This document shows positions 1,749-30,249 of a DNA stretch of 33,714 bases, piece after piece. The stretch spans positions 1-33,714 of the forward strand of contig CAZCJG010000003.1 of NCBI GenBank assembly GCA_964498575.1, read 5' to 3'. Positions within the stretch are counted from its first letter, which is position 1, and each line of letters begins with the position of its first letter. The DNA comes from an uncultured Anaerolineales bacterium. GTDB taxonomy: Bacteria > Chloroflexota > Anaerolineae > Epilineales > Epilineaceae. The notes under the pieces are model-generated. The model made no database searches, was not told the origin of the DNA, and was given only the letters and a program-made list of their open reading frames with translations. Position numbers and translations under genes: made by a program.

Positions 1749-1793
1749 TCTACCGTAAGGCTTTGCGATCCAAGGTATCCAACGCGAGGTGAG

Positions 1794-5531: not shown

Positions 5532-5538
5532 GTGATTG

Positions 5539-5631
5539 CCTGGGAGCGCGGGTCTCCGGCCCGCATGAGCCTGCACCGCGAGGTCGTCTCTCCTTGCAGG
5601 GCGGTGCGGGCCGGAGGCCCGCGCTCCCAGG
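5539..5631. repeat. Long inverted repeat (27-nt arms, ~39-nt spacer) between convergent genes; candidate bidirectional terminator or REP/MITE-like element
   Basis: The left arm cctgggagcgcgggtctccggcccgca (5539-5565) is the reverse complement of the right arm tgcgggccggaggcccgcgctcccagg (5605-5631) apart from one position. That position forms a G-U pair in plus-strand RNA. The spacer holds an inner cctgca/tgcagg stem. Confidence 0.5.
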
Positions 5632-5640
5632 CGTCGTCTC

Positions 5641-9620: not shown

Positions 9621-11726
9621 TTACTTCGGCCCGCCTGCCAGTACCACGTGATCCCCAACCACCGCCCCGTCCTCCGCGACCACCGGGATGCGCTCGACCG
9701 AAGGCCAGGTGTAGGCGCCGGCGACGAGGCGGTGGCGGGTCGGATCGTAGCCGCCCGGCACGTCGATCACGCGCCGTTCGACCACCTGGTCGCCCGGCTT
9801 CCACTGTGCGACCGGGAAAAGGTCGCGCCCCAGGGGTGCGTCGCTCGCGGCGACGACGCGGTCACCCTCCAGCACCTGGAAGAACACGGTCGGCTCGGCG
9901 TCCGGGGCGCGATCGATCCCCCAGACGGTCCCCAGGATCAGCCGCTCGCCGCCGGCGGACGGCTGGCGCGCCACCGGCACCGCGCCCAGCAGCACCAAGC
10001 CGTTCGCGAAGCGCGCCCGCGGGGGGGCGATCGGCGGCGCCGGCCGGCCGTCGATACGGATGTACAGCGGGCGCGCCGTGGATTCCAGATCGCCGCGGGC
10101 GAGCGGGCCGTCACCGAAGTCGATCCGCAGCCCCGGCACATGCTCCGCCCAGACGTGCTCCGGCTCCAGCCCTTCCGGTTGGAGGAAGGCGACGCCCGGC
10201 CCGACGTCGAGGATGGGATCGTAGCCGTCGTTGAGCTTGACGCGGTCGACGTCGACCAGGAACGGCACCGCCGCCCAGCCGTCGCGCAGCCGCCGGTCCA
10301 GCCAGACCGCGCCCGCCGTGGCCGCACCGCCTTCTCCCGTGCCGGCCTCCTCTGACCTGGCCGCCGGTCCGCTGGACCACCCCCCGCGCCAGCCAGAGCC
10401 GAGGGCGGTGTTGACCTCGCGCGCCAGATCCACCGCCGCGCCCTCGAACGCGAAGGCGAGCGTGTCGCGCGTCGGCCCCGGCGCGCCGGCCGCGCGCGCA
10501 TAGCCCAGCGTCGCGGCAAGCTCGCCGCCGACCAGCAGCAGGGCGAGCAGCGCCGCGAGAGCGGAGGCGAGCCTCGCGGCGCGTGGGCTGCCGCGCGCGC
10601 GCTCGGCGACCGCGGCGACGGCGACGGCCGGTGGGACCAGAAGCGCCGGCAGTGATCCCGCCGCGCGCAGGAAGTGCGGCGCGTTCTCGGCCAGGAGCGT
10701 TGGGATCAGCATCACCGCGATCCAAACCGCGATCAGGACGTCCGCCGGCCGCCGCCGCCACAGCATCAGGCCGAGCCCGGCCAGCCACAACGCGCCGCCG
10801 AGCAGCCCGAGCACCGGCCGGTTCGGGATGTTGTGACGCGGGATGAAGTCCCCGCGGACGAAGACCATGCCCAGCGTGCCCCCCAGGTTGCGTGCCAGCG
10901 CGCCGGCGAGGTCGCCGTGGTGGATCTCGGGCGCGAAGACCGATACCTGGCCGGCCCGGCCCAGCGTGGCGCCCGGGTCGCGAGCGAAGGCGACCAGGAG
11001 CGGCGCGGCGACCAGAAGCGCGGCGGCGAGCCAGACCGCGGCCAGATGGCTGGCTGGAGGGTGCATGACAGGGCGGTCGTCTGGCTGGTCGGGGACGGGC
11101 GCCGGCGTCCCGCCGGTGCTCCCGGGGGCGGACTGCCGCGCTCGCCGCGCCCACAGCCACCACAAGCCCCAGGCCGCGATCGCCACGGGCAGCAGCCGCG
11201 CCGCGGTGTAGGTGTACAGCGTCAGCCCGGCCAGCGCGCCGCCGAAAGCGATCCAGCGCCGGCTTGACCGCCGCGCGCCGCGGGTGGTGGCGGCGACGGC
11301 GAGCGCCAGGACGAGCGGCAGCAGCCCCACCCGGAAGCCCACCCGCCCGAGGATCACCGGCCAGGGGGCGACCGCGAAGAGCGCGGCGGTGAGCAGCCCG
11401 ACCCGCCGCCCGTAGAGCCCGGTCGCCATCGCGAACGCCGCCGCCGTACCGGCCGTCCCGGCGAACACCGAAACCAGCCGTACCGCCGCCGGCGTCGGCC
11501 CGAGAATCCCGATCATGCCCGCGACCAGGTAGATGAACAGCGGCTCGCGGCCATTGTTGGCCGGGAAGTAGAGATGCCGGTCACCTGCCAGCACGCCGGT
11601 GGCGTCGATGCCGTAGTAGGCCTCGTCATGATAGAGGCCCGGCGGCAAGCTATCGACCGCCACCAGCCGCAGCGCGAAGGCCGCGATCACGACGAGGAGA
11701 ACCAGCAGGCGGTGCGGGGTGGTCAA
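9621..11726 (-). CDS. GT-C fold membrane glycosyltransferase (GT39/ArnT/PMT-like), 701 aa
   Basis: The N-terminus MTTPHRLLVLLVVIAAFALRLVAVDSLPPGLYHDEAYYG has the DE-containing first loop typical of ArnT/PMT-type enzymes. Many hydrophobic helices follow over about 430 aa, then a soluble C-terminal domain of about 270 aa. TTG start at 11726, stop TAA. Confidence 0.8.
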   Translation of the reverse strand: MTTPHRLLVLLVVIAAFALRLVAVDSLPPGLYHDEAYYGIDATGVLAGDRHLYFPANNGREPLFIYLVAGMIGILGPTPAAVRLVSVFAGTAGTAAAFAMATGLYGRRVGLLTAALFAVAPWPVILGRVGFRVGLLPLVLALAVAATTRGARRSSRRWIAFGGALAGLTLYTYTAARLLPVAIAAWGLWWLWARRARQSAPGSTGGTPAPVPDQPDDRPVMHPPASHLAAVWLAAALLVAAPLLVAFARDPGATLGRAGQVSVFAPEIHHGDLAGALARNLGGTLGMVFVRGDFIPRHNIPNRPVLGLLGGALWLAGLGLMLWRRRPADVLIAVWIAVMLIPTLLAENAPHFLRAAGSLPALLVPPAVAVAAVAERARGSPRAARLASALAALLALLLVGGELAATLGYARAAGAPGPTRDTLAFAFEGAAVDLAREVNTALGSGWRGGWSSGPAARSEEAGTGEGGAATAGAVWLDRRLRDGWAAVPFLVDVDRVKLNDGYDPILDVGPGVAFLQPEGLEPEHVWAEHVPGLRIDFGDGPLARGDLESTARPLYIRIDGRPAPPIAPPRARFANGLVLLGAVPVARQPSAGGERLILGTVWGIDRAPDAEPTVFFQVLEGDRVVAASDAPLGRDLFPVAQWKPGDQVVERRVIDVPGGYDPTRHRLVAGAYTWPSVERIPVVAEDGAVVGDHVVLAGGPK

Positions 11727-11735
11727 CGGGCCGGC

Positions 11736-11741
11736 AGTATA
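11736..11741 (-). promoter_or_regulatory. -10-like TATACT 9 nt upstream of the glycosyltransferase start codon (near-leaderless)
   Basis: Plus-strand agtata at 11736-11741 reads TATACT on the minus strand. The TTG start is at 11726. No SD lies between them. Confidence 0.3.
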
Positions 11742-11819
11742 GCATATTCCGGGTGTTGCCGGTTTGGGATAGGTCCACGGTTAGCTGCGGTCCTTCCGCG
11801 ATCGGCCGGCGGACTGTTG

Positions 11820-11825
11820 TATACT
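11820..11825 (+). promoter_or_regulatory. -10-like TATACT 7 nt upstream of the acyl-CoA synthetase GTG (leaderless candidate)
   Basis: TATACT at 11820-11825, a 7-nt spacer gcgatgc, then GTG at 11833. There is no SD and no convincing -35. Confidence 0.35.
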
Positions 11826-11832
11826 GCGATGC

Positions 11833-13254
11833 GTGCAATTGAGCCGCCCCTGGCACGCCTTCTATCCCGAGGGTTTGCCCCCGCGCGACCGATATCCCGC
11901 GATCCCGTTGCAGGGCTTCGTGGAGCGCGCCGCGGCGTGGCACCCGCACAAGCTGGCCCTCGTCGACGGCGCGGGGAGCTGGAGCTACGCCGAGCTCCAT
12001 GCGGCGATTCTCTCCGGCTCGGGCTGGATTCGCGCGCAGGGGGTCGAGCCCGGGGATCGGGTGCTCCTGCGGATGGGCAATCGCGCCGAGTTCATCCTGG
12101 CCTATTACGCGGCGCTCCGGGCCGGAGCGATCGTCGTCGCCAGCAGCCCCTTGATCGGCGAAGCGGAGCTCCGCGCGCAGGTAGCGGACGCGTCCCCGCG
12201 GCTCGTGCTGGACATGGGGCCGGGGGACGGGTCGCCGGTGGACTCTGCGCCCCAGGACATCGCCGTCCTCCAATACACCAGTGGGACGACGGGCGCACCC
12301 AAGGGGGCGATCATGAGCCATCGCAATCTCGTCGCGAACGCGCTTCAAAACGCGCGATGGTTCGGCTGGCGCGCGGACGAGGTCAACCTCGCCATCCTCC
12401 CGCTATGCCACACCTGGGGCATGTGCACGTGCATGAACTCCACCTTCGCGGTGGGGGGCACGCTCGTGCTCGCGGATCGGTTCGTCGAGGAGGAAGCCTT
12501 CGACCTCGTGGAGCGCCATCAGGCGACGGTCCTCTACGGGAGCGCGACGATGTTCCACCGCCTGCTCGACCGGCCCCCGCGCCGCCTGGGGAGCCTGCGG
12601 CATGTGAAGGCCGGGGCGATGCTCTCACAGGGGGACCTCAAGCGCCGCTGGGACGAGCGTTACCCGCATGCGCCGCTGCAGCAGGGGTACGGGCTGACGG
12701 AGGCTTCGCCTGAGAGCCACAACAATCCGCCGGCCCGCTTCAAGGCGGGAACGGTGGGCGTGCCGCTGCAGGACACGGACTGCCGCATCGTCGACGGCGA
12801 GGTGCAGCTCCGCGGGCCGCAGGTAACGCGCGGCTACTGGAACCGCCCCGAGGCGACGCGCGAGGCCTTCGACGCGGGCTGGCTGCGCACGGGCGACGTC
12901 GGCGTGATGGACGAGGAGGGCTATCTGTCCATCGTCGACCGCAAGAAGGACATGCTCAAGTTCCGCGGCTACACGGTGAGCCCCAACGCCGTGGAGGAGC
13001 GCCTGCTCCGGCACCCCGCCGTGAAGGAGGCGGTCGTGGTCGGCCGCCCCGACGAGCGCGAGGGGGAGATCCCGATCGCGTTCGTCGTCCTCCTGGCGGA
13101 GGCGAGCGACCGCGACCTCGACGCGCACTGCCGGGCCGGGCTCGCGCACTACGAGGTGCCGCGCGAGTTCCGGCGAATCGCCGAGATCCCGCGCAACCCC
13201 CTGGGCAAGCCGCTGCGGCGGATCTTGCGCGGGGATAGCGCCAAGGCTCGATGA
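11833..13254 (+). CDS. AMP-dependent synthetase/ligase (acyl-CoA synthetase family), 473 aa
   Basis: AMP-binding motifs are present: LQYTSGTTGAPKGAIMSH, GYGLTEASP, GWLRTGDVGVMDEEGYLSIVDRKKDMLKF, and a C-terminal PLGKP lysine. Confidence 0.85.
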   Translation: MQLSRPWHAFYPEGLPPRDRYPAIPLQGFVERAAAWHPHKLALVDGAGSWSYAELHAAILSGSGWIRAQGVEPGDRVLLRMGNRAEFILAYYAALRAGAIVVASSPLIGEAELRAQVADASPRLVLDMGPGDGSPVDSAPQDIAVLQYTSGTTGAPKGAIMSHRNLVANALQNARWFGWRADEVNLAILPLCHTWGMCTCMNSTFAVGGTLVLADRFVEEEAFDLVERHQATVLYGSATMFHRLLDRPPRRLGSLRHVKAGAMLSQGDLKRRWDERYPHAPLQQGYGLTEASPESHNNPPARFKAGTVGVPLQDTDCRIVDGEVQLRGPQVTRGYWNRPEATREAFDAGWLRTGDVGVMDEEGYLSIVDRKKDMLKFRGYTVSPNAVEERLLRHPAVKEAVVVGRPDEREGEIPIAFVVLLAEASDRDLDAHCRAGLAHYEVPREFRRIAEIPRNPLGKPLRRILRGDSAKAR

Positions 13255-18233: not shown

Positions 18234-19109
18234 ATGCCTCCCGGCATCCGCTGCCCGCTGATGGCCACCCACACCAGCGAGCCAATTCAGCGAAAGGTAC
18301 ATTCTATGGCCGCGTTACTGACGCGGAAGGAGTTGGAGCGGCAATTCGCCCCCTCCTTCACTCCCGACCAGACGACGGTGCTGGTCGACGTCTTCGACAG
18401 CTACAACGCGCTCGAAGTCGAGCGCGCCTCCGACACCCGGGCAATCCGGGAGGGCCAGCGGGTGCTCACTGATGGCCAGCGGGTGCTCACCGAGAAGGTC
18501 GATGTGCTGGCCGATGCGGTGCTCGGCCTGACCGAGGCTCAGACGCGCACCGATGTCCAGCTCAAGTCGCTCACCGAGGCCCAGGCGCGCACCGATGTCC
18601 AGCTCAAGTCGCTCACCGAGGCCCAGGCGCGCACCGAGGCCACGATGGAGCGCGGGTTCGCCGCCGTATGGGGCGCCATCTCCGAACTTACGGCGCAGAT
18701 GTCTACGCTCGGTCAGCATGTCGGGAGCCTGGTCAACACCTTCGGTTTAAACCTGGAGGAGTACACCGGCGCATTGCTTCCCGCCTACCTCGATCAGCAA
18801 TTCGACATCACCGGCGCGATGCTGGAGCGACGCTACTTCCAGGACGTCGCGGGCGCAACCGACGAGGTCGACCTCTATGGGCACGGCCTGCGGGACGGCG
18901 CGACCGTGGTCGTGCTCGCCGAGGTGAAGACGAGCATCGGCGGCACGGAAGCGCGGCGCCTGGCCGACAAGCTCGATCGGGTAGCGGCGGCCACGGGTGA
19001 GGCAGAGGTGCTCAAGCTCATCGTCGCGATGAACATTCACCCCACCGCTGTCGAAGCCGTCGCGGACCGGGACATCATCCTCCTGCCCTACAGCCGCATC
19101 CGCCTGTGA
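18234..19109 (+). CDS. Coiled-coil protein with a C-terminal PD-(D/E)xK nuclease-like domain (function unknown)
   Basis: The N-terminal ~150 aa are heptad-like with internal repeats (TEAQxRTDVQLKSL x2.5). The C-terminal segment DEVDLYGHG...VVVLAEVKTS fits a D...ExK restriction-endonuclease-like core. In-frame alternative starts are at 18261 and 18306. Confidence 0.7.
   Translation: MPPGIRCPLMATHTSEPIQRKVHSMAALLTRKELERQFAPSFTPDQTTVLVDVFDSYNALEVERASDTRAIREGQRVLTDGQRVLTEKVDVLADAVLGLTEAQTRTDVQLKSLTEAQARTDVQLKSLTEAQARTEATMERGFAAVWGAISELTAQMSTLGQHVGSLVNTFGLNLEEYTGALLPAYLDQQFDITGAMLERRYFQDVAGATDEVDLYGHGLRDGATVVVLAEVKTSIGGTEARRLADKLDRVAAATGEAEVLKLIVAMNIHPTAVEAVADRDIILLPYSRIRL
18534..18637 (+). repeat. 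42-bp in-frame tandem repeat (2.5 copies) inside the coiled-coil gene
   Basis: Copies start at 18534, 18576 and 18618 (gaggcycagrcgcgcaccgatgtccagctcaagtcgctcacc). A separate 21-bp duplication (ggccagcgggtgctcac) has copies starting at 18453 and 18474. Confidence 0.9.
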
Positions 19110-19201
19110 TGGTCGCGGGCGCGCGGCGCCAAGCCCCGTGCTCCGCAGTCCGCACCGGATGTTTGGCGATGCCGCATCGCCGCAGGTATAGTTAACACAA
19201 G

Positions 19202-19247
19202 CGCCGCCGGCAGCCTGTCCCCGCTGGGGAGAGGCCTGCCGGCGGCG
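19202..19247. terminator. Bidirectional intrinsic-terminator-like hairpin between the convergent PD-(D/E)xK gene and nosZ
   Basis: A 12-bp GC-rich outer stem pairs cgccgccggcag (19202-19213) with ctgccggcggcg (19236-19247). An inner tcccc/gggga stem is also present. It is flanked by TCTTTGT on the plus strand and TTGTGTT on the minus strand. Confidence 0.55.
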
Positions 19248-19289
19248 TCTTTGTAGACCGTAGCCTATCCGGTCGTCGACCGTGACCGC

Positions 19290-21371
19290 CTACCGCTGCG
19301 CCGTCGTCCCCGGCGCGACCAGCATGTAGCCGACCATTTCGAGGTGCAGCGCCGAACAGAACTCGGTGCAGTAGTAGGGGAACGCACCCTCCGCATCCGC
19401 GACGAACTTCACCGTCTGCGTCTCGCCTGGCTCCAGCGATAGGTTGATGTTGTAGGCCGGGATAGCGAAGCCGTGGGTCGCGTCGCGCGCGGTCTCGACG
19501 TTGGTGATGTGCAGCGTCACGTTGTCGCCCGCCTGCAGGTTCAGGCGCTCGGGCGTGAAGTGGCTGCGCACGGCGGTCATCCAGATCTCGACGTTGTTGC
19601 CGTCGCGCTCGACCTTCTCGCTCCCGGCGACGGGCGCGTCGGGGCCGGCATTGGACATCGTCTCGGGGTTCCAGGGCACTTCGGGATAAGTCTCGAAGGC
19701 CTTGAGCTTGTCCGCCTTGATGATCTGCGCGTAGTGCGGCTCGGCGTTGCCGATCGGCATGTCGTACAGCACCGGCATGTTCTCGGGCGTGCCGCCGAGA
19801 TCCAGAAGCTGGAAGTTCTGCGGCAGCAGCGGGCCGACGTTGGCGAAGCGGTCGATCGACCATTTGTTGAGCGCAACCAAGTACTGCCCGTCCGGGCTGA
19901 CCGTGTCGCCCTCGGCCGCGGCGATGTGGCCGACGTTGTACTGCACGGGGGTCGCCGTGACCAGCTTCCAGGGCTCCAGGCCGTCCTGGCGATAGTCCCC
20001 GCCCAGCGTCCAGCGGTTGACCGTGCTATCCAGGAACATGCTGGTGTAGGCGAAGCCCTTGTCGTCGAACTGGGTGTGCAATGGCCCCGCGCCGAGCTGG
20101 ACCTGGGCTTCCATCACCGCGTCGAAGGGCAGCACCGGCACGCCGTAGGCATCGGTGTCCCACTTCCCGGCGGCGATCGCGTCCTGCAGCTTCTTGAAGC
20201 TGTAGACCGTCGCATTCTGGTCCAGCTTGCCGCCGACCACGAGGTAGTCCCCCTTGGGCGTCACGTCCGCACCGTGCGGGCTCTTCGGCTCGGGCACGAA
20301 CCACAGGAGCTGCTCGTCGATCGCGGTCTGCAGCGGGATCACCTTGAAGCCGTTGACCAGGGTGGTCTTGCCGTCCTGACCCGCGACCTCGGCCGCCTTG
20401 TCGAGGTTGACCACGTGCAGGTAATCCATGTCGTTCTGCGACACGCCGGACTCGAAGTTGACGCCGTTGCCTTCGGCGTCCTTGCCGGTCGCCAGCTCGG
20501 TGTTGATGCTGTTGCAGAAGATCCAGCCCTCGCTCTCGAGCTTGCCCGAGTCGCAGAGATCCTGCCAGTAGGGTGGCACCTCGATGGCGAAGGACTGAGC
20601 CGGGTCGATACGGCCCTGAGCGCGGTCGAACTTCCAAAACGTGATATGGCCGCGGTACTTGTCCTGGTACTCCTCCATCGGCGCGTAGCCCCCGCCCAGT
20701 GGCTGGGCGTACTGGCCGCCTTCGACCACCCACTCGGTGTTGGGTGTGACGAACATGCCGCCGTGGTCGATGTCGCCGACCGGGTTCTTGACGATCTGCT
20801 TGGTCTCGAAGTCGCGCAGGTCGACCACCGCGACCCGCGCGTTGGCCTTGTCGCCGATGAACAGGTACTCGCCGTCGTAGTCGCCGGCGGTCTCGGACAG
20901 CGCCGGGTGGTGGGTGTCGGCCCAGCGCAGCTTGTGGTCGCCGGCGTTGCCGGCGTCCAGGATCGCTTCGGTGCCGGCGGCGCCGGTCCCCCAGCCCTGC
21001 CAGCTCTCCGGGGTGAAGACGCCGATCACCTTGAGCAGGCGCATCGACGGCAGCCCGACCGCCAGGATCTGGCCGGAATGGCCGCCCGACGCGAACATGA
21101 TGTAGTCGTCGAGCTTGCCGCTCGGCAGATAGGTCTTGACGGCGTTCTCGACGTCCGCCGGAGACAGGCCGCGCGCCGCGGCGATCTCGTCGACGGAGGC
21201 CGAGCCGGAGGCGGCCGGCGCGCCACCGGGGGCCGCACCGCCGGACGTGTCGGCGGCCTGCTCCTCGGTCGGCCGCGGCTGGCCGCTGGTGTCGACATCC
21301 TGCCGCCGGCAGCCGAGGATGACGGCCGGCAACAGCAGGCTGACGGCGATGATGGCGAAACTGCGTTTCAT
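19290..21371 (-). CDS. nosZ: Nitrous-oxide reductase, Sec/lipoprotein-type (clade II-like)
   Basis: Has the CuA motif YYCTEFCSALHLEMVGYM plus DATHGF, and the CuZ-region motif WADTHHPA (DxHH without a third His). The N-terminus MKRSFAIIAVSLLLPAVILGC has a lipobox and no twin-arginine. The ATG at 21371 is preceded by the SD GGGGAGGA, so it is preferred over the GTG at 21398. Confidence 0.9.
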   Translation of the reverse strand: MKRSFAIIAVSLLLPAVILGCRRQDVDTSGQPRPTEEQAADTSGGAAPGGAPAASGSASVDEIAAARGLSPADVENAVKTYLPSGKLDDYIMFASGGHSGQILAVGLPSMRLLKVIGVFTPESWQGWGTGAAGTEAILDAGNAGDHKLRWADTHHPALSETAGDYDGEYLFIGDKANARVAVVDLRDFETKQIVKNPVGDIDHGGMFVTPNTEWVVEGGQYAQPLGGGYAPMEEYQDKYRGHITFWKFDRAQGRIDPAQSFAIEVPPYWQDLCDSGKLESEGWIFCNSINTELATGKDAEGNGVNFESGVSQNDMDYLHVVNLDKAAEVAGQDGKTTLVNGFKVIPLQTAIDEQLLWFVPEPKSPHGADVTPKGDYLVVGGKLDQNATVYSFKKLQDAIAAGKWDTDAYGVPVLPFDAVMEAQVQLGAGPLHTQFDDKGFAYTSMFLDSTVNRWTLGGDYRQDGLEPWKLVTATPVQYNVGHIAAAEGDTVSPDGQYLVALNKWSIDRFANVGPLLPQNFQLLDLGGTPENMPVLYDMPIGNAEPHYAQIIKADKLKAFETYPEVPWNPETMSNAGPDAPVAGSEKVERDGNNVEIWMTAVRSHFTPERLNLQAGDNVTLHITNVETARDATHGFAIPAYNINLSLEPGETQTVKFVADAEGAFPYYCTEFCSALHLEMVGYMLVAPGTTAQR

Positions 21372-21387
21372 GGTGGTCCTCCCCTTT

Positions 21388-21627
21388 TCAGGTGTCACAA
21401 TCCGGTCCGCCGACGTCCATCCGCTCCCGGGACGACGCGCGGGTCGCCTCGATCAGGCCTGCGCTCGGAAGCTGATAGACCCGCTCCACATCGCTCAAGG
21501 TGCAAAACCGCGCCATCGGGCAACCGACGCACGCCAGGCGCAGCGCCAAGAACGCTTGAATGGTCGCGGGCCAGGCCCGCAGGACGGTTTCGACGGTCAT
21601 ATCCCTCGATGGGCTGGCCGGCTCCAT
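21388..21627 (-). CDS. DUF1858 / ScdA-N-like redox-disulfide (CxxC) small protein, 79 aa
   Basis: DMTVETVLRAWPATIQAFLALRLACVGCPMARFCTLSDVERVY matches the DUF1858 pattern (MTVxxVLxxxPxxxxxFxxxxxxCxGCPxA). ATG at 21627 is preceded by AAGGAAGGTGG. Its TGA stop lies 16 nt upstream of the nosZ ATG. Confidence 0.7.
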   Translation of the reverse strand: MEPASPSRDMTVETVLRAWPATIQAFLALRLACVGCPMARFCTLSDVERVYQLPSAGLIEATRASSRERMDVGGPDCDT

Positions 21628-21782
21628 ACCCACCTTCCTTTGCCGGGCACGGTTCCCGCGCTCGATGCCCGATCTCGTGCGCTCGTTGGTCGCCCTCCCC
21701 CGCCCTCCGCCCCCACCCCGCGCACGAGGTGGGGGCTTCGGGTTGATCCATATCCCGCCAGGGATGGAAGAGAGACGCACCC

Positions 21783-21824
21783 AGAATACCCGGCTTGAGC
21801 CGCGGTTTGGTTGCGCTTGCGCAA
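21783..21824 (-). promoter_or_regulatory. Candidate class II Crp/Fnr-dependent promoter: TTGCG-N4-CGCAA palindrome plus TATTCT -10
   Basis: A perfect 14-bp palindrome TTGCGCTTGCGCAA (21811-21824) has TTG-N8-CAA spacing. Exactly 22 nt separate it from a minus-strand TATTCT hexamer (21788-21783). This places the box centre at about -41.5 relative to a predicted TSS near 21776. It lies between the Crp-family gene and the DUF1858-nosZ pair. Confidence 0.5.
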
Positions 21825-21914
21825 ACAGGCGGCCGCGACGACCACATGGCGACCGTTGTCGGACCGGGTTGGGACCTCGCACGGCCGGCGGTGCGGGCAG
21901 GCTGAAGGGATCCC

Positions 21915-22670
21915 TCACGGGCCGTCGGCGTGCGCCGCCGTGCCGGCCGCCGGCAGGTCCTCGGCGATGGCGACCAAGGCATGGGGGTGGAGGATCACCA
22001 CCCGCTTGCGGCCGGTGGCGACGATGCCCTGGGCTTCCCAATCTGAGAGGGTGCGGCTGACGGTGTACAGGGTGGTTCCCGCCATCTCGGCCAGATCCTG
22101 GCGCGAAAGGGGCAGGTCGACCAGGATGCCCGCGTCGGTCTTGCGCCCGGCTTGCCCCGCCAGCCGCAGGACGGCCCGCGCGATCCGGCGCTCGACCCGT
22201 TCGGTGGCCAGCTCGCGCATGCGGTCCTGAAACTCGCGCATCCGGTGCGCCAGGAGTTGCATCGCGTTGCCGGCGAGCCGGGGCATCCCGGCCATCAGCC
22301 CGCTGAAGGCCTCGCCATCCCAGGCCAGCGCGACCGCGTCCTCCAGCACCTCGGCCGAGGCGGGGTAGGCGGCATGGCCCAGCGCGGCGACGATCGCGAA
22401 GCCGTCGCCGGGGCCGAAAAAGTGCATCACCACCTGCTGCCCCTCCGGCGTCACCTGCGACAGGCGCACGCGGCCCTCGCGCAGCACGTAAAACGTGGTC
22501 GCCGGGGCGCCCTGGTGAAAGAAGAAGCCGCCGGCAGGCACATGGCGCGTCTGCGCCGCGGCGATCACGGCATCCAGCGCGGCCGCGTCCAAGCCACCGA
22601 AGAGATCGATCTGAGCCAGAGCGGCTGGGGCGGAAGCGGCGGACCGAACGGGCGTAGGCACAACCCGCAT
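21915..22670 (-). CDS. Crp/Fnr-family transcriptional regulator (no cysteines; Dnr/NnrR-like rather than FNR proper)
   Basis: Has a cNMP-binding-like beta-roll (FFFHQGAPATTFYVLREGRVRLSQVTPEGQQVVMHFFGPGDGF) and a C-terminal HTH (LSRQDLAEMAGTTLYTVSRTLSDWEAQGIV). The 251-aa sequence contains no Cys. Confidence 0.85.
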   Translation of the reverse strand: MRVVPTPVRSAASAPAALAQIDLFGGLDAAALDAVIAAAQTRHVPAGGFFFHQGAPATTFYVLREGRVRLSQVTPEGQQVVMHFFGPGDGFAIVAALGHAAYPASAEVLEDAVALAWDGEAFSGLMAGMPRLAGNAMQLLAHRMREFQDRMRELATERVERRIARAVLRLAGQAGRKTDAGILVDLPLSRQDLAEMAGTTLYTVSRTLSDWEAQGIVATGRKRVVILHPHALVAIAEDLPAAGTAAHADGP

Positions 22671-22711: not shown

Positions 22712-25060
22712 TCAGCGTGGCATGGCCGGCGCGCCGAGCTCGGCGGGCGGCAGCCGAGCGGGATCGTAGCCATAGCGGATCAGCGTCGACCAGTCGCCGG
22801 TGAGCCACACGGTGCGTCTGCCGTCCAGGGCGCTGGCGACGTCGATGTCGTGGATCGCGACGTTGACCGTCGTCGCCTCCGACCATGCCTGGCCGTCGAA
22901 GTGCAGCACCGTGCTCATCATCGGCTGGCCGTCGCCGCACGCGATCCGATCGCTGAAGCGACGCTCGCGGCCACAGCGCGCCACCACCCAGATGTCGTCA
23001 GGGGCGGCCACGGCCAAGTTGACGAGCTGCGCGCCCGATCGGAGCAGGTTCTCGCCGCTCCGGCCCGTCAGCGCCGGGACGGGGCACCAGCCCAGGCCGT
23101 CGTTGCGGGCGACGCCTTGGGCACCGGCAACCCACACCGACCCATTGTCCAGCGCACTGACCGCGATGGCGTCAGGGGTGATCGGGCTGTTCGCAAGGCT
23201 GCAGACCTGCCGGCCCGTGCCCCCGGTATCGCACCAACACGCGGGCCGCGCCCCGCCGCAAGCCGCCGAGATCAACAAGCTGGCGCGGTCGCCGACCACC
23301 CACACATCGCCTTGGGCGGTCGCCGTCAGCGCATTCCAGTGGCCCGCGCCCGCCTGTGGCCCGAGCGCCTGCTCGCGCCAGGCCCCGGCCGCCTGGTCGA
23401 ACCACCAGACCTGGCGCCTGCCGGTGTCGTTCTCGGAGATCGCCCAGGCCATGCCGGCCGGCGAGACCGTGACGTCGACGAAGCGCGGCTGGCCCGCTTC
23501 GGGCAGTTGGAAGGCGCGCGGCCGATCCAGCGGGCCGCGCAAGCGCAGGCTCACCCCGCGTTCGCCCACCACCCAGGTGTCGCCGCCGCCGCTGGCGAGT
23601 GCGCGCATCGGCGCGGCGGCCAAGGCCGGGTCCAGATCGGCATCGAGCGGTAACGCCTGGAAGAGCTGATCGCCCAGCCGGGTGAACAGGCCCGCGCCTT
23701 GATCGGAGCTGGCCAGGAGCCAGCCAAAGCCTGCCTGGGGGACGAAGTCGACGAAACGATGGCGTTCGCTAACCCGCGTCCAGGCTTCGCTGGCGCGATC
23801 GAACCACCATACCTGCTCACCCCAGGCGTAGAGCACGCCCGCGCCGGGCCCTTGCATCCCGGCCTCGCCGGCCGGCACCGCGGCGATGGCGCTGCTGCCG
23901 TCGATCCCGAGGTCGTCCTCGGCGTAGGGCGACGGACCGTAGGCGGTCCACTCGCCGGTGTCGCCGTCGCGCTGGTGCAAGACCGCGCGGCCGGGCAGGG
24001 GGGAGACCCCTACCCAGATCTCGGTGCCCGGCACCTGGTAGGCATCGACCAGGGCATGGCCCGCCCAATCCTTGGCCGGGGATTGTTCGTCAAGACCCCA
24101 GGCTTCCGCTTCGGCGTCCCAGACCCAGCCAAGCACCGCCGAGCCGTCCCAGCGCTCGCCGAAGGCCCAGCCTTCGCTGTTGTCGCGCCCGAAGATCAGC
24201 TCACGCGGCCAGCCGGAGCCATCGGTTTGCCGAATGGACCACGTGCTATCCCGGCCGGTGCGCAGGAAGACGCCCTCGCGCCGCTCGAGGTTGGAACCGA
24301 CCGCCCAGGCGCGCGGCATCTCTCCAAAGGCGTCGGGGTGGGGATCGAAGGCGACATCGGTGAGCAGCGGCGCCAGCTTGGCAACGTCGCTGTGGTCCTG
24401 CCAGCCGGCCGGGGTAAGCTGGTGCACGACGGCGAGATCCGATCCGCTGCGGCCGACCGCCCAGCCTACCGGCACGCCGTTGTAAGGGATGATCCGGATC
24501 GACAGCAGCTCGACGTCGACGTAGCGATGCTGGAGAGGATGCGCCCGCCAGCAGCCGGCGCGCAGCTCGGGCGTCTGGCCCTGGTCGCCGGCGGCCCAGC
24601 CGACGGCTCCGCCCGAGCCCGTTTCGACATAGGCGGCGTTCAGCCCTGTCAGCTCCTGGCCGATCTGGGGCACCCAACCCGCCCGACCCCCACGGCCGGC
24701 GCCGGCCGCGCCCAGCGCGCCGCGATCAGGACGCCAGCGCGCCACCCCATCCCCTACGGCGATGACCGTTCCCTCGCCGTCCCCGAGCGCGAAGAGGTCA
24801 CGGATTCGCCCCATGCCACCACAAACCGCGGTCCAGCCCTCGCCGCCCGGGCAGGTTTCGGGCACGGCCGGGCCGCAGGGTTCGGCGGCCAGCGTGCCCA
24901 CGTAGGGCAGGAACAGCGGATGCTCGCGCGCCGCCGGCACCGCCACCGGGGTTTGCGCTCGCGCGGACGTCGGCGCGAGCGCCAGGGTCAGACCGAGAAG
25001 CAGACAATGCGCTGCGCAGATCTGCGTCAGGTGGGCTGCCGGCTTGAGTCGTCCGTCCAT
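22712..25060 (-). CDS. Secreted beta-propeller-like protein (recurring xWxxG blades), function unknown, 782 aa
   Basis: Has the signal peptide MDGRLKPAAHLTQICAAHCLLLGLTLALAPTSARA. Blade-end motifs recur about every 45-60 aa (GWAAGDQG, GWAVGRSG, AWAVGSNL, TWVVGERG, VWVVGDRA, VWVAGAQG, VWLTGDWS). The start lies 3 nt after the upstream stop. Confidence 0.7.
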   Translation of the reverse strand: MDGRLKPAAHLTQICAAHCLLLGLTLALAPTSARAQTPVAVPAAREHPLFLPYVGTLAAEPCGPAVPETCPGGEGWTAVCGGMGRIRDLFALGDGEGTVIAVGDGVARWRPDRGALGAAGAGRGGRAGWVPQIGQELTGLNAAYVETGSGGAVGWAAGDQGQTPELRAGCWRAHPLQHRYVDVELLSIRIIPYNGVPVGWAVGRSGSDLAVVHQLTPAGWQDHSDVAKLAPLLTDVAFDPHPDAFGEMPRAWAVGSNLERREGVFLRTGRDSTWSIRQTDGSGWPRELIFGRDNSEGWAFGERWDGSAVLGWVWDAEAEAWGLDEQSPAKDWAGHALVDAYQVPGTEIWVGVSPLPGRAVLHQRDGDTGEWTAYGPSPYAEDDLGIDGSSAIAAVPAGEAGMQGPGAGVLYAWGEQVWWFDRASEAWTRVSERHRFVDFVPQAGFGWLLASSDQGAGLFTRLGDQLFQALPLDADLDPALAAAPMRALASGGGDTWVVGERGVSLRLRGPLDRPRAFQLPEAGQPRFVDVTVSPAGMAWAISENDTGRRQVWWFDQAAGAWREQALGPQAGAGHWNALTATAQGDVWVVGDRASLLISAACGGARPACWCDTGGTGRQVCSLANSPITPDAIAVSALDNGSVWVAGAQGVARNDGLGWCPVPALTGRSGENLLRSGAQLVNLAVAAPDDIWVVARCGRERRFSDRIACGDGQPMMSTVLHFDGQAWSEATTVNVAIHDIDVASALDGRRTVWLTGDWSTLIRYGYDPARLPPAELGAPAMPR

Positions 25061-25063
25061 GGC

Positions 25064-25867
25064 TCAGGGCGGGGGTGGATCGGTCGGCGTCTCGGGCGGG
25101 GGTGGATCGGTCGGGGGCCGGGTGACGGTCGGCAGCGGGCCTGTCGGAACAATCGCCGTGCTGGTCGCCGCGGGGACGATGGCCGGAGGGAAGGTCGGCG
25201 GTGCCTCCGTTGCTGTGGGCGATGCCGGCGCGTCGGTCGGCGCGGGCGGCGCCGTCGGCGTCGCCGAGGCCGGGCTCTCGGACTTCTCGTTCGGCGGGCG
25301 GGACTGCGGCACGACGACGGCCGGTGCTGGGCTTGCCTCGATCGTCGCCGTCGCGAGCGGCACCGGTGCCTGGACGAGCACCGACTCGCGCGCGCCGGTC
25401 GGCGCGGCTTCGGCGAGCTCGGCGGGCTCGGCCGCTTCCCTCCTGTCGTCGGGCGCGGCTGCCGGCGCCTTGCTCGGCACGGCAGGCGGCGCCTTTACCC
25501 CCGCGACTGCCGGCTCGTCCGGCACAGGGCGCAGGGCCATCGGTGTGGGAAGCGCCGTCCGGTCGTCGGCTGCGGGCGCGCCGCCCGGCCAAGGTCGGAT
25601 CGACACGCTGTTCAACCCCACCCAGGTGAGCGCCACCAGGCTGATGAGCACGCCGGCGGTCCATGCCAGGCCGCGCGGGACAACCAGCGCCCGGCCCCTC
25701 GGCAGCGGCAGGCGCCAGCCGGGCGGGGTAGGCGGGCGTGCCAGAAGGTCGCGCCGTAGCCCGGCGCGGAACTCCGGCCGCGGCAGCACCGGCTCGCCCT
25801 GTCCGAAGCGCTCGGCCAAGGGGTCGGCCCCCCCGCTGCGCGGCTCAGGCCGAGGCGACCGGGACAC
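25064..25867 (-). CDS. Putative single-pass anti-sigma factor with a Pro/Ala/Thr-rich extracytoplasmic tail
   Basis: The call rests on position: the GTG start overlaps the 3' end of the ECF sigma gene by 23 nt. There is one TM helix (LAWTAGVLISLVALTWVGL) and a low-complexity C-terminus ending PPTDPPPPETPTDPPPP. A 21-nt direct repeat occurs at 25067-25087 and 25094-25114. No zinc-binding anti-sigma (HxxxCxxC) motif is present. Confidence 0.5.
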   Translation of the reverse strand: MSRSPRPEPRSGGADPLAERFGQGEPVLPRPEFRAGLRRDLLARPPTPPGWRLPLPRGRALVVPRGLAWTAGVLISLVALTWVGLNSVSIRPWPGGAPAADDRTALPTPMALRPVPDEPAVAGVKAPPAVPSKAPAAAPDDRREAAEPAELAEAAPTGARESVLVQAPVPLATATIEASPAPAVVVPQSRPPNEKSESPASATPTAPPAPTDAPASPTATEAPPTFPPAIVPAATSTAIVPTGPLPTVTRPPTDPPPPETPTDPPPP

Positions 25868-26390
25868 GCGAGTCTCCTTCCAGGCGCAGGCGCAGCCGTT
25901 CGCGGGCGCGGTGCAGCCGCTTGTGGACCGCCGCCGGCGTGCAGTCGAGAATGTCCGCGATCTCGGGCGGGGTCAGCCCGGCATAATAGAACAAGCTCAA
26001 GATCTCCTGATCGGCGCCCGGTATCTGGGCCAGCGCCGCCTCGAGCGCGGCGCGCTCGTCGACCCGGCGCTCCGGCTGCGTCGGCGCATGGCCGGGCCCG
26101 AAGGGCACGAGCTGCCACAGCCGCCCCTTGCGATGGTGGTTGGCCACCAAGTTGCCGGCGATGCGATAGAGCCACGCGACGAAGGGCACGCCACGAATCT
26201 CGTAGCGCTCGATGGCGACCAAGGCGCGCTCCCAGACCGCGCTGGCAAGATCCTCCGCGGTTGCCTGGTCGCCGACCCGGCGCGCGACGTAACGGTAGAT
26301 CGCGTCGAAGTGTCGATCATACAAGACGCCGAACGCCTGCCGATCGGTGCGGGCGGCGTCGACCAGCCAGTCCTCGTCATAGTTGGGCAT
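25845..26390 (-). CDS. ECF-type RNA polymerase sigma-70 family factor (182 aa from ATG 26390)
   Basis: Region 2 is FGVLYDRHFDAIYRYVARRV...FVAWLYRIAGNLVANHHR. Region 4 is EILSLFYYAGLTPPEIADILDCTPAAVHKRLHRARERL. The longer 235-aa form would overlap the divergent rhodanese gene, so it was not used. Confidence 0.85.
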   Translation of the reverse strand: MPNYDEDWLVDAARTDRQAFGVLYDRHFDAIYRYVARRVGDQATAEDLASAVWERALVAIERYEIRGVPFVAWLYRIAGNLVANHHRKGRLWQLVPFGPGHAPTQPERRVDERAALEAALAQIPGADQEILSLFYYAGLTPPEIADILDCTPAAVHKRLHRARERLRLRLEGDSRVPVASA

Positions 26391-26397
26391 CCGCTGA

Positions 26398-26403
26398 CTA
26401 TTA
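26398..26403 (-). promoter_or_regulatory. -10-like TAATAG 7 nt upstream of the ECF sigma ATG (leaderless candidate)
   Basis: Plus-strand ctatta at 26398-26403 reads TAATAG on the minus strand. A 7-nt spacer separates it from the ATG at 26390, with no SD. Confidence 0.25.
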
Positions 26404-26492
26404 ACACGCGTCGGCGCCAAAATGGACAGCCCCGGGTCAAAATCCGGTTCCGGAAGCCGACCTCCGCTCGCGCGCGCCGCCATGCGGTGGAG

Positions 26493-26498
26493 TATAAT
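26493..26498 (+). promoter_or_regulatory. Consensus TATAAT 6 nt upstream of the rhodanese ATG (leaderless candidate)
   Basis: TATAAT at 26493-26498, ATG at 26505, and no SD in between. No good -35. Confidence 0.4.
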
Positions 26499-26504
26499 CC
26501 GATC

Positions 26505-26849
26505 ATGTCCGAGAAACAAGCTGCTTCCCCGTTCCAGATCCTGACCGTCCACGAGTTATCCAACCGCCGGGCGCGCGGCACGGCGCCGCGCATCATCGAC
26601 GTCCGCGAGCCATATGAGTGGTCGATCGCCCGTCTCGCCGACACCGAGCTCAAGCCGCTCAGCGAGATCAGCCGCTGGTGGCGCGAGCTCGACCCGGCCG
26701 AAGAGATCGTGTTCTACTGCCACCACGGCGTCCGCAGCGCCAACGTCTGCCGCGCGCTGGCCGCCGAGGGCTTCTCCCGGCTTTACTCGCTTGAGGGCGG
26801 CATCGACACCTGGGCGGCCGAGATCGACCCGGGGATGGCGCGCTATTAG
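26505..26849 (+). CDS. Single-domain rhodanese-like sulfurtransferase, 114 aa
   Basis: IIDVREPYEW...IVFYCHHGVRSANVCRAL carries the active-site loop CHHGVRS. Confidence 0.85.
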   Translation: MSEKQAASPFQILTVHELSNRRARGTAPRIIDVREPYEWSIARLADTELKPLSEISRWWRELDPAEEIVFYCHHGVRSANVCRALAAEGFSRLYSLEGGIDTWAAEIDPGMARY

Positions 26850-28328: not shown

Positions 28329-28416
28329 CCCTTGCTCGAATCGCCCAAGCTCCGTCTGGTTGCCTCCGCCCTCGCCCCAAGCAACCCCTCACCCCCTAGT
28401 CAGGAGACCTCGAACG

Positions 28417-30249
28417 ATGATGAACACACCCTTGCACCGGCGCCGCGCCGCGCCCGGCCGACACGCCCTCGCCGCGGGCCTGACGACCCTGGCGGCCGCG
28501 GTCGCCGCCGCGCTCGTGATCGCGGCCGCGATCACGCCAGGTCGGCCGCCGGTCGCCGCGGCGCCGGATCAGACCGGCCAGAGCTACTTCCTGCCTAACG
28601 TGCAATCCAGCGGGTTCCGCTCCCTCGCCGGCCTGCTCGACGCCGAGGGGCTGACCGGCATGTCCGGCTTCGGCGACACGACGATCGAGCTGCAGAACCT
28701 GGCGGCGCAGGCGGCGACGGTCGATATCAACCTGGCCAACCTGGAAGCCACGCGCAACCTCAAGCGGCAGGTGGCGGCGCGCGGCAGCGCCACGATTGTC
28801 CTGAAATCGGAGTCAGCCGTCGCGCTCGGCAGCCACAGCGCGCGAATTGCGAGCAACGCGCCGCTCGGCGTGATCGCGCGCACCACCTGGGCCGGCGGCG
28901 CCGAGGTGGCGTACGAGGCGCCCGAGGCGGCGCGCGAGCTGATCCTGCCCCTGATGGCGCGCAACGTGCTCTCGCATACCACCAGCTTCTACATCCACAA
29001 CACCAGCGGGTCGGACGAGGTGAACCAGGTCAAGCTCAACATCTTCGACGACACGAACGGCGAGCTGCTCAAGGACATCATCGTCGATCTCGATCCCTTC
29101 GGCGTCGCGGATTACGACCCCTATGTCGATCCACCGCGGTTTGGGGACCTGCCGGCCAACGCCTCCGGCGGCGGCTTCGTCGGGGCGATCCGCTTCAGCG
29201 CGGACGCGCCGGTGGCGGTGCTGGCCTACGGCGACGAGCTGGACCTGGACAGCCGCGGCTCGGCGGCCTATGTCGCCCGGCCGGTGGCCGCGGCGAGCAA
29301 CCATCAGTACCTGCCGCTGGTGCGGGCCAACTACTTCGGGGATTCGTGGATCGGCATCGCCAGCCGCGAGACCACGCCGATCTCGGTGAAGGTCACCTAC
29401 CGCGGTGCCGCCGATAGCCCGGCCGGCGCGGGGCAGGTCTTCGAGCAGAGCTTCGAGATCGGCCGGCGCGGCGCAGCGTTCGTCGATCTGAGTGGCCGTG
29501 GCCGCGGCACGCGCCCGGCGCCCGGCCTGCCGCGCGGCGCCGCCACCAACCGCGGCTTCTACGGCAGCGCGGTGATCGAGGCCAACGGCCGCGTGCTGGC
29601 GGCGGTGGTGCAGTCGACCTATCCCAACGCCGCCGTGATCACCAGCACCACCAGCGCGGCCTACAACGCCTTCGGCGCCGCCGACCTCGGCACGCGCTTC
29701 GCGCTGGCCAAGGTGCGCTACGGCGCCGCGGCCGGGGCGACCAAGACCGAGCTGGCGGTGATGAATCCCGGGACGGATGCCGCGAACGTATCGATCGCCT
29801 ACAACGATCCCGGCCAACCTGTCGCGGGGCCGAGCGCCGCCATCCCGGCCGGCGCCATGCGGATTATCGCGCTGGAGGCCAAGGGCGCGGACAAGCCGGC
29901 GACGATCACGTCGGACGTCCCGGTCGCGGTGCTGGTCAACGACACGGCGACGACCTCGAGCAACTGGCTGATGCCGAGCCACGACACGTCGATCTACTGG
30001 CCGGTGCGCCTGTCCGGGGCGGTCACCCCCAGCCCGACGCCGACCGGCGGCGCGACGACGGCCGCGCCCCCAAGCCCGACGCCGACCGCCACCGCCACGG
30101 CGACGGCGCAGGTCTCGACGGCCACGGCCACCGCAACCTCACCCACGTTGACCCCGACACCCGTGACGCCGACCGTGGCGCCGACCACCGCTGGCACGCG
30201 GCTCAAGGTCTTCCTTCCCGTAGGGTATCGCAACGAGAAGGTGCGCTGA
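28417..30249 (+). CDS. Exported protein with four ~115-130 aa internal repeats, a Thr/Pro-rich linker and a short C-terminal FLPV tail; function unknown
   Basis: ATGATG at 28417 is preceded by the SD GGAGA (28403-28407). The N-terminus has RRR followed by a hydrophobic anchor. The first three repeats open with YFLPNV, LILPLM and QYLPLV. Each contains a TTxxhxN strand and a GFxGxAxhxxxxPh strand. The linker is TPSPTPTGG...TPTPVTPTVAPTT. The protein ends LKVFLPVGYRNEKVR. Confidence 0.75.
   Translation: MMNTPLHRRRAAPGRHALAAGLTTLAAAVAAALVIAAAITPGRPPVAAAPDQTGQSYFLPNVQSSGFRSLAGLLDAEGLTGMSGFGDTTIELQNLAAQAATVDINLANLEATRNLKRQVAARGSATIVLKSESAVALGSHSARIASNAPLGVIARTTWAGGAEVAYEAPEAARELILPLMARNVLSHTTSFYIHNTSGSDEVNQVKLNIFDDTNGELLKDIIVDLDPFGVADYDPYVDPPRFGDLPANASGGGFVGAIRFSADAPVAVLAYGDELDLDSRGSAAYVARPVAAASNHQYLPLVRANYFGDSWIGIASRETTPISVKVTYRGAADSPAGAGQVFEQSFEIGRRGAAFVDLSGRGRGTRPAPGLPRGAATNRGFYGSAVIEANGRVLAAVVQSTYPNAAVITSTTSAAYNAFGAADLGTRFALAKVRYGAAAGATKTELAVMNPGTDAANVSIAYNDPGQPVAGPSAAIPAGAMRIIALEAKGADKPATITSDVPVAVLVNDTATTSSNWLMPSHDTSIYWPVRLSGAVTPSPTPTGGATTAAPPSPTPTATATATAQVSTATATATSPTLTPTPVTPTVAPTTAGTRLKVFLPVGYRNEKVR

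Follow-up and report, generated by a model that had tools for sequence, protein, structure and literature searches.

The locus described here raises the question of how the product of a nitrous-oxide reductase gene, nosZ, comes to be matured if no maturation gene stands beside it. The gene lies in a 33,714-nt stretch from an uncultured Anaerolineales bacterium (assembly GCA_964498575.1, contig CAZCJG010000003.1, positions 1 to 33,714; hereafter the window), which has a G+C content of about 0.72 and about 20 genes, delimited by open reading frames (ORFs) with a G+C content at third codon positions (GC3) of at least about 0.8. Three minus-strand genes read from 22670 to 19290, namely a gene for a Crp/Fnr regulator, a DUF1858 gene and nosZ. 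An earlier note on this DNA had left two explanations side by side, maturation functions encoded elsewhere or a reduced or different assembly route. The comparative evidence favours the first, because the ancestral cluster of the clade appears to have been complete, because two contigs carrying the corresponding halves in relatives (L004 and L049) co-occur in one metagenome, and because nosZ appears to be under purifying selection; the second explanation found no support. Overall, we consider it reasonably probable, judging from the relatives, that the window holds the regulator and DUF1858-nosZ half of a split nos regulon, the maturation operon of which would lie outside the window.

The canonical clade II cluster has nosB directly after nosZ, with nosD, nosF, nosY and nosL at the same locus, and such an arrangement is not found in the window. 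As the earlier note had claimed, nos accessory genes are absent from it: NosB, NosD, NosF, NosY, NosL, Sco or cytochrome c were detected nowhere in the 33.7-kb window by a Pfam run on its 20 called ORFs, by phmmer with two sets of NosB, NosD, NosF, NosY, NosL, cytochrome c and Sco queries (from the related loci L001 and L049) against six-frame ORFs of at least 40 aa (E<=1e-4), or by tblastn relaxed to E<=1-10. A motif scan of the window likewise found no CxxCH motif, and 3' of nosZ no remnants of nosB, nosD, nosF, nosY or nosL were detected by tblastn at E<=10.

The nosZ gene itself, by its sequence, encodes an intact and ordinary clade II NosZ with complete metal sites. The ORF as listed (19290-21398, minus strand, as are all nosZ features given below) opens with a GTG at 21398 and encodes 702 aa. 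Translation almost certainly begins at the ATG at 21371 instead, since a GGAGG is found 7 nt upstream of it and the closest homologues have 691-692 aa and open with MKR; the predicted product (19290-21371) then has 693 aa. Assignment to the clade II, Sec-dependent lipoprotein type, as proposed earlier, held up: TIGR04246 (Sec-dependent NosZ) matches over profile positions 1-578 with 796.3 bits (cutoff 625), and Pfam finds the nos_propeller and cupredoxin/COX2 domains. The score for TIGR04244 (Tat-dependent, clade I NosZ) is 394.2 bits, below the cutoff of 625, and no twin-arginine motif is present, so that a clade I enzyme with an overlooked Tat signal, which the note had named as the finding that would speak against it, is not what is seen. 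NF052460, the profile of the clade III lactonase-type L-NosZ, also stays below its cutoff (178 bits against 700). A Pfam Lactonase match (E = 3.9e-5) was weighed as a hint of clade III membership, which was rejected on these NCBIfam scores, the match reflecting a generic propeller resemblance.

Alignment to the clade I structure 5i5m (E 6e-92) shows that all ligands of both metal sites are kept, in agreement with the earlier claim of intact CuA and CuZ motifs. The seven CuZ histidines are H154, H155, H203, H366, H432, H482 and H546, the first two of them within DTHHPA (20901-20918), the 'DxHH' form of clade II, which aligns to DSHHPH of 5i5m. The CuA ligands are H633 (19467-19484, placed by motif position) and C668, C672, H676 and M679 in the loop CTEFCSALHLEM (19335-19370), which aligns to CNWFCHALHMEM of 5i5m. 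A sequence search of the PDB returned no closer, clade II structure. The metal ligands are identical to those of the clade I enzymes of Shewanella denitrificans (5i5m), Pseudomonas stutzeri (3sbp) and Marinobacter (1qni), and the two-domain fold of these structures, a seven-bladed propeller plus a cupredoxin domain, is implied for the window NosZ too. The clade I enzymes, however, are Tat-exported and soluble and have DxHHxH and CxWFC motifs, whereas the window NosZ has a Sec lipoprotein signal, DxHH and CTEFC.

The signal peptide, read from the sequence, is MKRSFAIIAVSLLLPAVILG directly ahead of Cys21 (21309-21371); it has the lipobox ILGC and no twin arginine, and cleavage and lipidation at Cys21 are predicted from this motif. 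Behind it follows a Pro/Ala/Gly/Ser-rich low-complexity tether at about residues 22-76 (21144-21308), the TIGR04246 match beginning at residue 86 of the 702-aa ORF. This tether of about 55 residues differs in length and sequence between close homologues, among which an (L/F)GC-RR(Q/E)DVDTSGQ motif is conserved. A lipobox-like motif is present in 91 of the 120 closest homologues and a Tat motif in none of the 120; most of the remaining ones have an uncleaved N-terminal membrane helix, then a similar low-complexity linker. Chloroflexota-type NosZ proteins would thus have two alternative tethers, a lipobox or an N-terminal transmembrane helix, and membrane tethering appears to be a trait of the whole group rather than a peculiarity of the window gene. 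Likewise, lipobox and DxHH seem typical of the family and nothing special to this NosZ. Pairwise ratios of nonsynonymous to synonymous substitution rates (dN/dS) between the window nosZ and those of its relatives L004 and L005 are 0.17-0.20, as compared to 0.19-0.22 between L004 and L005, and at about 0.18 the window gene is, by this measure, under purifying selection.

The relatives show which arrangement was probably lost. In the NosZ tree, the window, P0001 (88% identity, from L005) and P0002 (85%, from L004) form a clade with 100% bootstrap. L005 has DUF1858-nosZ and, 120 nt later, a gene for a four-helix NosB-like protein. A contig from JGI 3300067032, which is tied to this clade through its NosB (87% identical to that of L005), reads DUF1858-nosZ-nosB-nosD-nosF-nosY-nosL-cytochrome c-YceI. 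More distant Chloroflexota clusters, with NosZ proteins 71-75% identical to that of the window, were found in GCA_963852785.1 (CAWKVV010000008.1; L001), in ENA ERZ27258567 (k141_1033886; L107) and in 'Chloroflexi bacterium CFX6' (MCE7938231.1; the cluster of P0003). They share with the window the lipobox-RRxDVDTSGQ N-terminus, an upstream Crp/Fnr gene, a small DUF1858-like gene and a TTGCG-N4-CGCAA box. Unlike the window, they run on into nosB-nosD-nosF-nosY-nosL-cytochrome c and have a Sco1/SenC-like gene before nosZ (L107, Crp-DUF1858-Sco-nosZ-nosB-nosD-nosF-nosY-nosL-cytochrome c-CopD; L001, Crp-DUF1858-Sco1-nosZ-nosB-nosD-nosF-nosY-nosL-cytochrome c). As L005 keeps DUF1858-nosZ-nosB, and the JGI 3300067032 contig and the more distant clusters have the full order through to cytochrome c, the complete cluster would be ancestral in this clade and the state seen in the window derived.

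Some further features of these clusters may be recorded here. At 70-75% NosZ identity, a Sco1/SenC-thioredoxin-like gene lies between the DUF1858-like gene and nosZ (L001 9152-9928, L105 9178-9912, L106 6875-7666, L107 7033-7734); its product is possibly a CuA copper chaperone. This gene is absent from the examined loci of the window's clade, i.e. the window, L004, L005 and the JGI 3300067032 contig. In many Chloroflexota clusters the separate nosD and nosF genes are replaced by a NosD-NosF fusion of 750-800 aa with a beta-helix and an ABC ATPase (P0297-P0299, P0304, P0309 and others; L012, L015, L019, L023, L027). The gap between nosZ and nosB of intact clusters (L005 2340-2460; L048 82-206) contains a long stem-loop, GAGGACAGGCAGCC...GGCTGCCTGTCCTC, and no regulator box, which suggests that transcription is partly terminated, or the mRNA processed, in this gap.

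The point at which the window departs from this arrangement can be placed closely. In blastn comparisons, the similarity of L004 and L005 to the window ends at 19286 and 19289, a few bases from the nosZ stop codon, and therefore the synteny breakpoint (19286-19292) is placed, as far as the alignments tell, exactly at the boundary between nosZ and nosB. A GC-rich stem-loop, found by repeat search and folding, lies 36 nt past the stop (19195-19254, minus strand). The hairpin fold of 110 nt has -61.7 kcal/mol and z = -5.3; it has no T-run, and a scan for intrinsic terminators called none, this hairpin included. What had been described as a bidirectional terminator is thus a strong hairpin that lacks the signature of an intrinsic terminator, and it is the probable end of the transcription unit. 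An Rfam search of 18-23 kb gave only one sub-threshold miRNA match, which was judged spurious. The usual place of nosB is occupied by a convergent ORF of 291 aa (18234-19109, plus strand) with a G+C content of 0.64, as compared to about 0.72 for the window. It has no family in Pfam, NCBIfam or PADLOC and holds three tandem repeats of 42 nt (14 aa, LTEAQARTDVQLKS) at 18528-18653.

A precedent for such a split is provided by two contigs of the metagenome JGI 3300009873. The first, L004 (Ga0131077_10006383), resembles the window in its Crp-DUF1858-nosZ module (85% NosZ identity, 83% DNA identity through the promoter), which is also cut off at the nosZ stop; it differs in the co-directional S8 peptidase gene that follows and in the genes upstream of Crp. 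The second, L049 (Ga0131077_10007190), reached by a search with the NosB of L005 that led to P0125, is the counterpart of the half missing from the window: a D-Ala-D-Ala ligase gene (ddl) is followed by nosB-nosD-nosF-nosY-nosL-cytochrome c with no nosZ in front. The 200-nt spacer between ddl and nosB holds a regulator box with one mismatch, TTGCTCCAGCGCAA, at a background of 0.07 per kb in the fetched loci, and no such box was found in the nosZ-nosB gaps of intact clusters. This is what one would expect of a detached accessory operon that has gained its own promoter under the same regulator. The G+C contents of L004 and L049 are 0.72 and 0.70, and their tetranucleotide frequencies correlate with r = 0.84; as proof of a common genome this similarity was discarded, an equal level being seen with other members of the clade. 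End-to-end joining of the two contigs found no overlap.

The regulatory half of the locus is conserved as well. The Crp/Fnr-family regulator of 251 aa (21915-22670, minus strand) has cNMP_binding and HTH_Crp_2 domains (Pfam). Its translation contains no cysteine at all, hence no N-terminal Cys cluster, and it is therefore not an Fe-S FNR; the scores against the NCBIfam equivalogs FixK (75.6 bits) and FnrL (41.8 bits) are far under the 300-bit cutoffs. By its sequence, it is probably NnrR/Dnr-like and a candidate for the NO-responsive type. In L001, L004, L105, L106, L107 and many other loci, a Crp gene is likewise found in synteny with nosZ. Upstream of the DUF1858 gene, a motif scan found the perfect palindrome TTGCGCAAGCGCAA (TTGCG-N4-CGCAA; 21811-21824, minus strand), an FNR/NnrR-type box with a single match in the window as compared to 0.04 expected, which is conserved upstream of DUF1858/nosZ in seven loci (L001-3, L004, L008, L017, L018). 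Its centre lies 29.5 nt upstream of the hexamer TATTCT (21783-21788, minus strand), which from its spacing to the box is a candidate -10 element. With this putative hexamer the box would be centred at -41.5, the class II FNR-type geometry, and transcription is predicted to start at about 21776, giving a 5' untranslated region of about 149 nt. This leader of the DUF1858 gene contains a stem-loop at 21668-21734. L004 (9543-9600) conserves the box, the hexamer, which reads TATCTT there, and the subsequent GTCTCTCTTCCAT.

The DUF1858 gene (21388-21627, minus strand) encodes a 'hybrid-cluster-protein-associated redox disulfide' protein of 79 aa, which scores above cutoff with both PF08984 (34.3 bits against 32.2) and TIGR03980 (53.4 against 44.95) and has a CxxC...C motif but no signal peptide. 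It ends 16 nt ahead of the nosZ ATG. From this gap the two genes are predicted to be cotranscribed as a two-gene unit with nosZ last, as the earlier note had it. The gene holds the equivalent place in L004, L005 and the JGI 3300067032 contig and is present with nosZ in 17 of the 59 related loci having enough flank. In many relatives it is found with complete clusters, sometimes after nosL together with the Crp gene. Lacking a signal peptide, the protein would be cytoplasmic and therefore cannot replace the extracytoplasmic functions of NosL or NosD. In Bradyrhizobium diazoefficiens, the DUF1858 gene bsl7085 adjoins nnrR, has the box TTGCGCTCCAACAA and is reported with a fold change of -29.2 in an nnrR mutant, and the consensus of the NnrR boxes is the same as the window box (PMC6710368). 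This pair (blr7084/bsl7085) resembles the window in that a Crp/Fnr denitrification regulator stands beside a small DUF1858 gene with a TTGCG...CAA box. It differs in being proteobacterial, of clade I, with nosZ in a separate nosRZDFYLX operon and DUF1858 not cotranscribed with nosZ. The denitrification-linked DrpB of Thermus also begins with a DUF1858 domain (PMC6282519). By analogy, the Crp/DUF1858 pairing would be widespread among denitrification regulons rather than a maturation device peculiar to this lineage. DUF1858 as a substitute assembly factor was rejected, on the missing signal peptide, on the co-occurrence with full clusters and because its counterpart bsl7085 is simply a gene under strong NnrR dependence.

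How rare a nosZ detached from its maturation genes is was assessed with 106 related loci, which were fetched and scored for the flanks of nosZ; the scans of genome and metagenome contigs returned relatives of about 73% identity or less. nosB and/or nosD directly follow nosZ in 83 of the 87 non-redundant loci with at least 800 nt downstream, and nosD, nosY and either nosL or nosF are present in 33 of the 38 with at least 6 kb downstream. Of the other five, two (L028 and L040) still have nosB, nosD and nosY, which leaves L004, L044 and the window. Together with L056, these three make up the four loci among the 87 in which neither nosB nor nosD follows nosZ. The neighbours in L044 and L056 are unrelated genes by Pfam: in L044 (Caldilineaceae metagenome-assembled genome (MAG) ABC1.76) nosZ (9749-11881) has a convergent epimerase gene as its next neighbour, with lgt, a HEPN gene and ABC exporter genes beyond it, and in L056 (a bioreactor contig; nosZ 5919-7982) an esterase gene comes next. 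From these contexts, the orphan nosZ genes of L044 and L056 would have arisen independently. In L044, lgt lies 1.2 kb from a lipoprotein-type nosZ, which may be coincidence. Three further candidates were dropped: the contigs of P0017 and P0009 simply end after nosZ, and P0144 proved to belong to an intact cluster. Detachment of nosZ from the maturation genes is thus real, but it is uncommon and concerns about 5% of the related Chloroflexota loci that were examined. No paper on an orphan nosZ, or on a nosZ without nosD, came up in our literature searches.

Taken together, the following picture is proposed for the split regulon. The cysteine-free NnrR/Dnr-like regulator would act at a promoter of class II type, which has a perfect TTGCG-N4-CGCAA box, and drive a bicistronic DUF1858-nosZ transcript that would end at the GC-rich hairpin. 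NosZ would be exported unfolded via Sec, lipid-modified at Cys21 and held by its flexible tether on the outer face of the cytoplasmic membrane. A rearrangement with its breakpoint at the nosZ stop would have split off nosB (encoding a four-helix membrane protein), nosD-nosF-nosY, nosL and the c-type cytochrome gene. These would form an operon of their own elsewhere in the genome, probably with its own NnrR-type box, which would mature and feed NosZ in trans. DUF1858 would belong to the NO/denitrification regulon as a cytoplasmic protein linked to the regulator, and would be no assembly factor. Sequence-based support for this reading comes from the intact enzyme, the signs of purifying selection, the conserved regulation, the presumably ancestral full cluster, the precedent of L004 and L049 with the box in the latter, and the recurrence of orphan nosZ genes.

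Several points weigh against it. The window and L004 are never sisters in the NosZ tree (0% bootstrap); since they are not and since their junctions differ, the two splits were probably independent events, and L004/L049 would be a precedent and not the same event. The link between L004 and L049 is one of sample, composition and clade, not of assembly or coverage, and only 1.8 kb upstream of nosB is present in L049. Pairwise dN/dS would miss a loss of function that occurred very recently on the branch leading to the window. Finally, in a survey of wastewater MAGs, every Chloroflexota MAG examined had nosB at most seven genes away from nosZ (PMC11409646), and thus the arrangement in the window is an exception.

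Four other explanations were weighed, each of which is less supported than a split regulon. According to the first, which we regard as unlikely, the window nosZ is supernumerary: a complete nos cluster with its own nosZ would exist elsewhere, and a duplicated or transferred Crp-DUF1858-nosZ module would borrow its NosB, NosD, NosF, NosY and NosL. Two nosZ genes do occur in some MAGs, including one Chloroflexota MAG (PMC11409646), and the genes flanking the module are wholly different in the window and in L004. The lower G+C content of nosZ and its downstream neighbour, 0.64-0.67 as compared to 0.70-0.76 in the rest of the window, is also in its favour. However, the GC3 of nosZ is 0.93 and thus host-like, and the lower total G+C content is common to the nosZ genes of all close relatives (0.67 in L005). 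Moreover, L049, the partner operon in the one parallel that is documented, lacks a nosZ directly in front of it.

The second explanation, that the nosBDFYL genes were lost from the genome and that the intact nosZ is a stranded remnant yielding an immature, inactive protein, appears improbable to us. It would agree with the lack of any accessory gene or remnant within 19 kb downstream and 12 kb upstream, with a breakpoint exactly at the nosZ stop and with the recurrence of orphan nosZ in L044 and L056. A stranded gene would nevertheless have to be reconciled with a full-length ORF in which every ligand is present, with a dN/dS no higher than that between relatives including an intact cluster, with the conservation of promoter box, ribosome-binding site and DUF1858 partner, and with the parallel case, in which L049 supplies a matching nosZ-less accessory operon.

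We give little credence to a third explanation, the reduced or alternative CuZ assembly suggested earlier, in which NosZ would be matured by other factors in place of NosDFY, NosL and NosB. It can draw only on the absence of the known factors from the window and on the presence of neighbouring ORFs without a family (291, 782 and 629 aa). None of these ORFs, however, is kept beside nosZ in L004 or L005. DUF1858, which lacks a signal peptide, also occurs at loci with full clusters, the closest relatives retain the complete canonical set and the ligand set of NosZ is unchanged. Its strongest form, a genome with no NosD, NosF, NosY, NosL or NosB and yet an active lipoprotein NosZ, the CuZ site of which is built on the outer face of the membrane by a new route, we likewise hold to be most improbable; if true, accessory-free CuZ assembly might extend to the orphan-nosZ lineages of L044 and L056. 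A chimeric join in assembly or binning after nosZ, the true neighbour being nosB, is highly unlikely too, for although the breakpoint coincides with a gene end, the G+C content drops locally, and the contigs of L105, L106, L050 and L076 end right after nosZ, a repeat search found no repeat or mobile-element signature at the junction. The layout there is ordinary: behind the hairpin comes a convergent ORF that has a promoter-like site to itself, and then genes of host-like composition (GC3 of 0.85-0.93). Moreover, independent assemblies (L004, L044, L056) are similarly orphaned with other neighbours.

The remaining neighbourhood of the locus is briefly described. A 782-aa ORF (22712-25060, minus strand) lies on the same strand as the Crp gene, 42 nt upstream of it, and has a signal-peptide-like N-terminus and Trp/Gly-rich repeats. 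Like a 629-aa ORF (28360-30249, plus strand), it has a GC3 of 0.86-0.91 and is without a match in Pfam, NCBIfam or PADLOC. A pair of high-GC3 ORFs, at 25044-26849 (plus strand) and 25845-26552 (minus strand), overlap each other. The latter is a clear extracytoplasmic function (ECF) sigma factor; the former shows a rhodanese domain only at its C-terminus, and its true start is therefore probably much further downstream than listed. At 135-9345, two proteins with tandem VWA domains (537 and 1245 aa) adjoin a 1234-aa InhA-like M6 metallopeptidase; a VWA protein (48% identical) is likewise found upstream of the nos module in L004.

Overall, no new way of building NosZ is indicated by this locus, and its novelty is one of gene organisation only. 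Its value lies in annotation and in the understanding of nos modularity, and knowledge of how the enzyme is assembled is unchanged by it. nosZ is a widely used marker of the potential for N2O consumption, and loci of this kind would be scored wrongly wherever a pipeline relies on an adjacent nosB to validate a clade II nosZ. The recurring Crp-DUF1858-nosZ linkage gives a small lead on the function of DUF1858. Furthermore, the L004/L049 pair suggests that a nos cluster can be maintained in two halves, each with a promoter of its own, under a single NnrR-type regulator.

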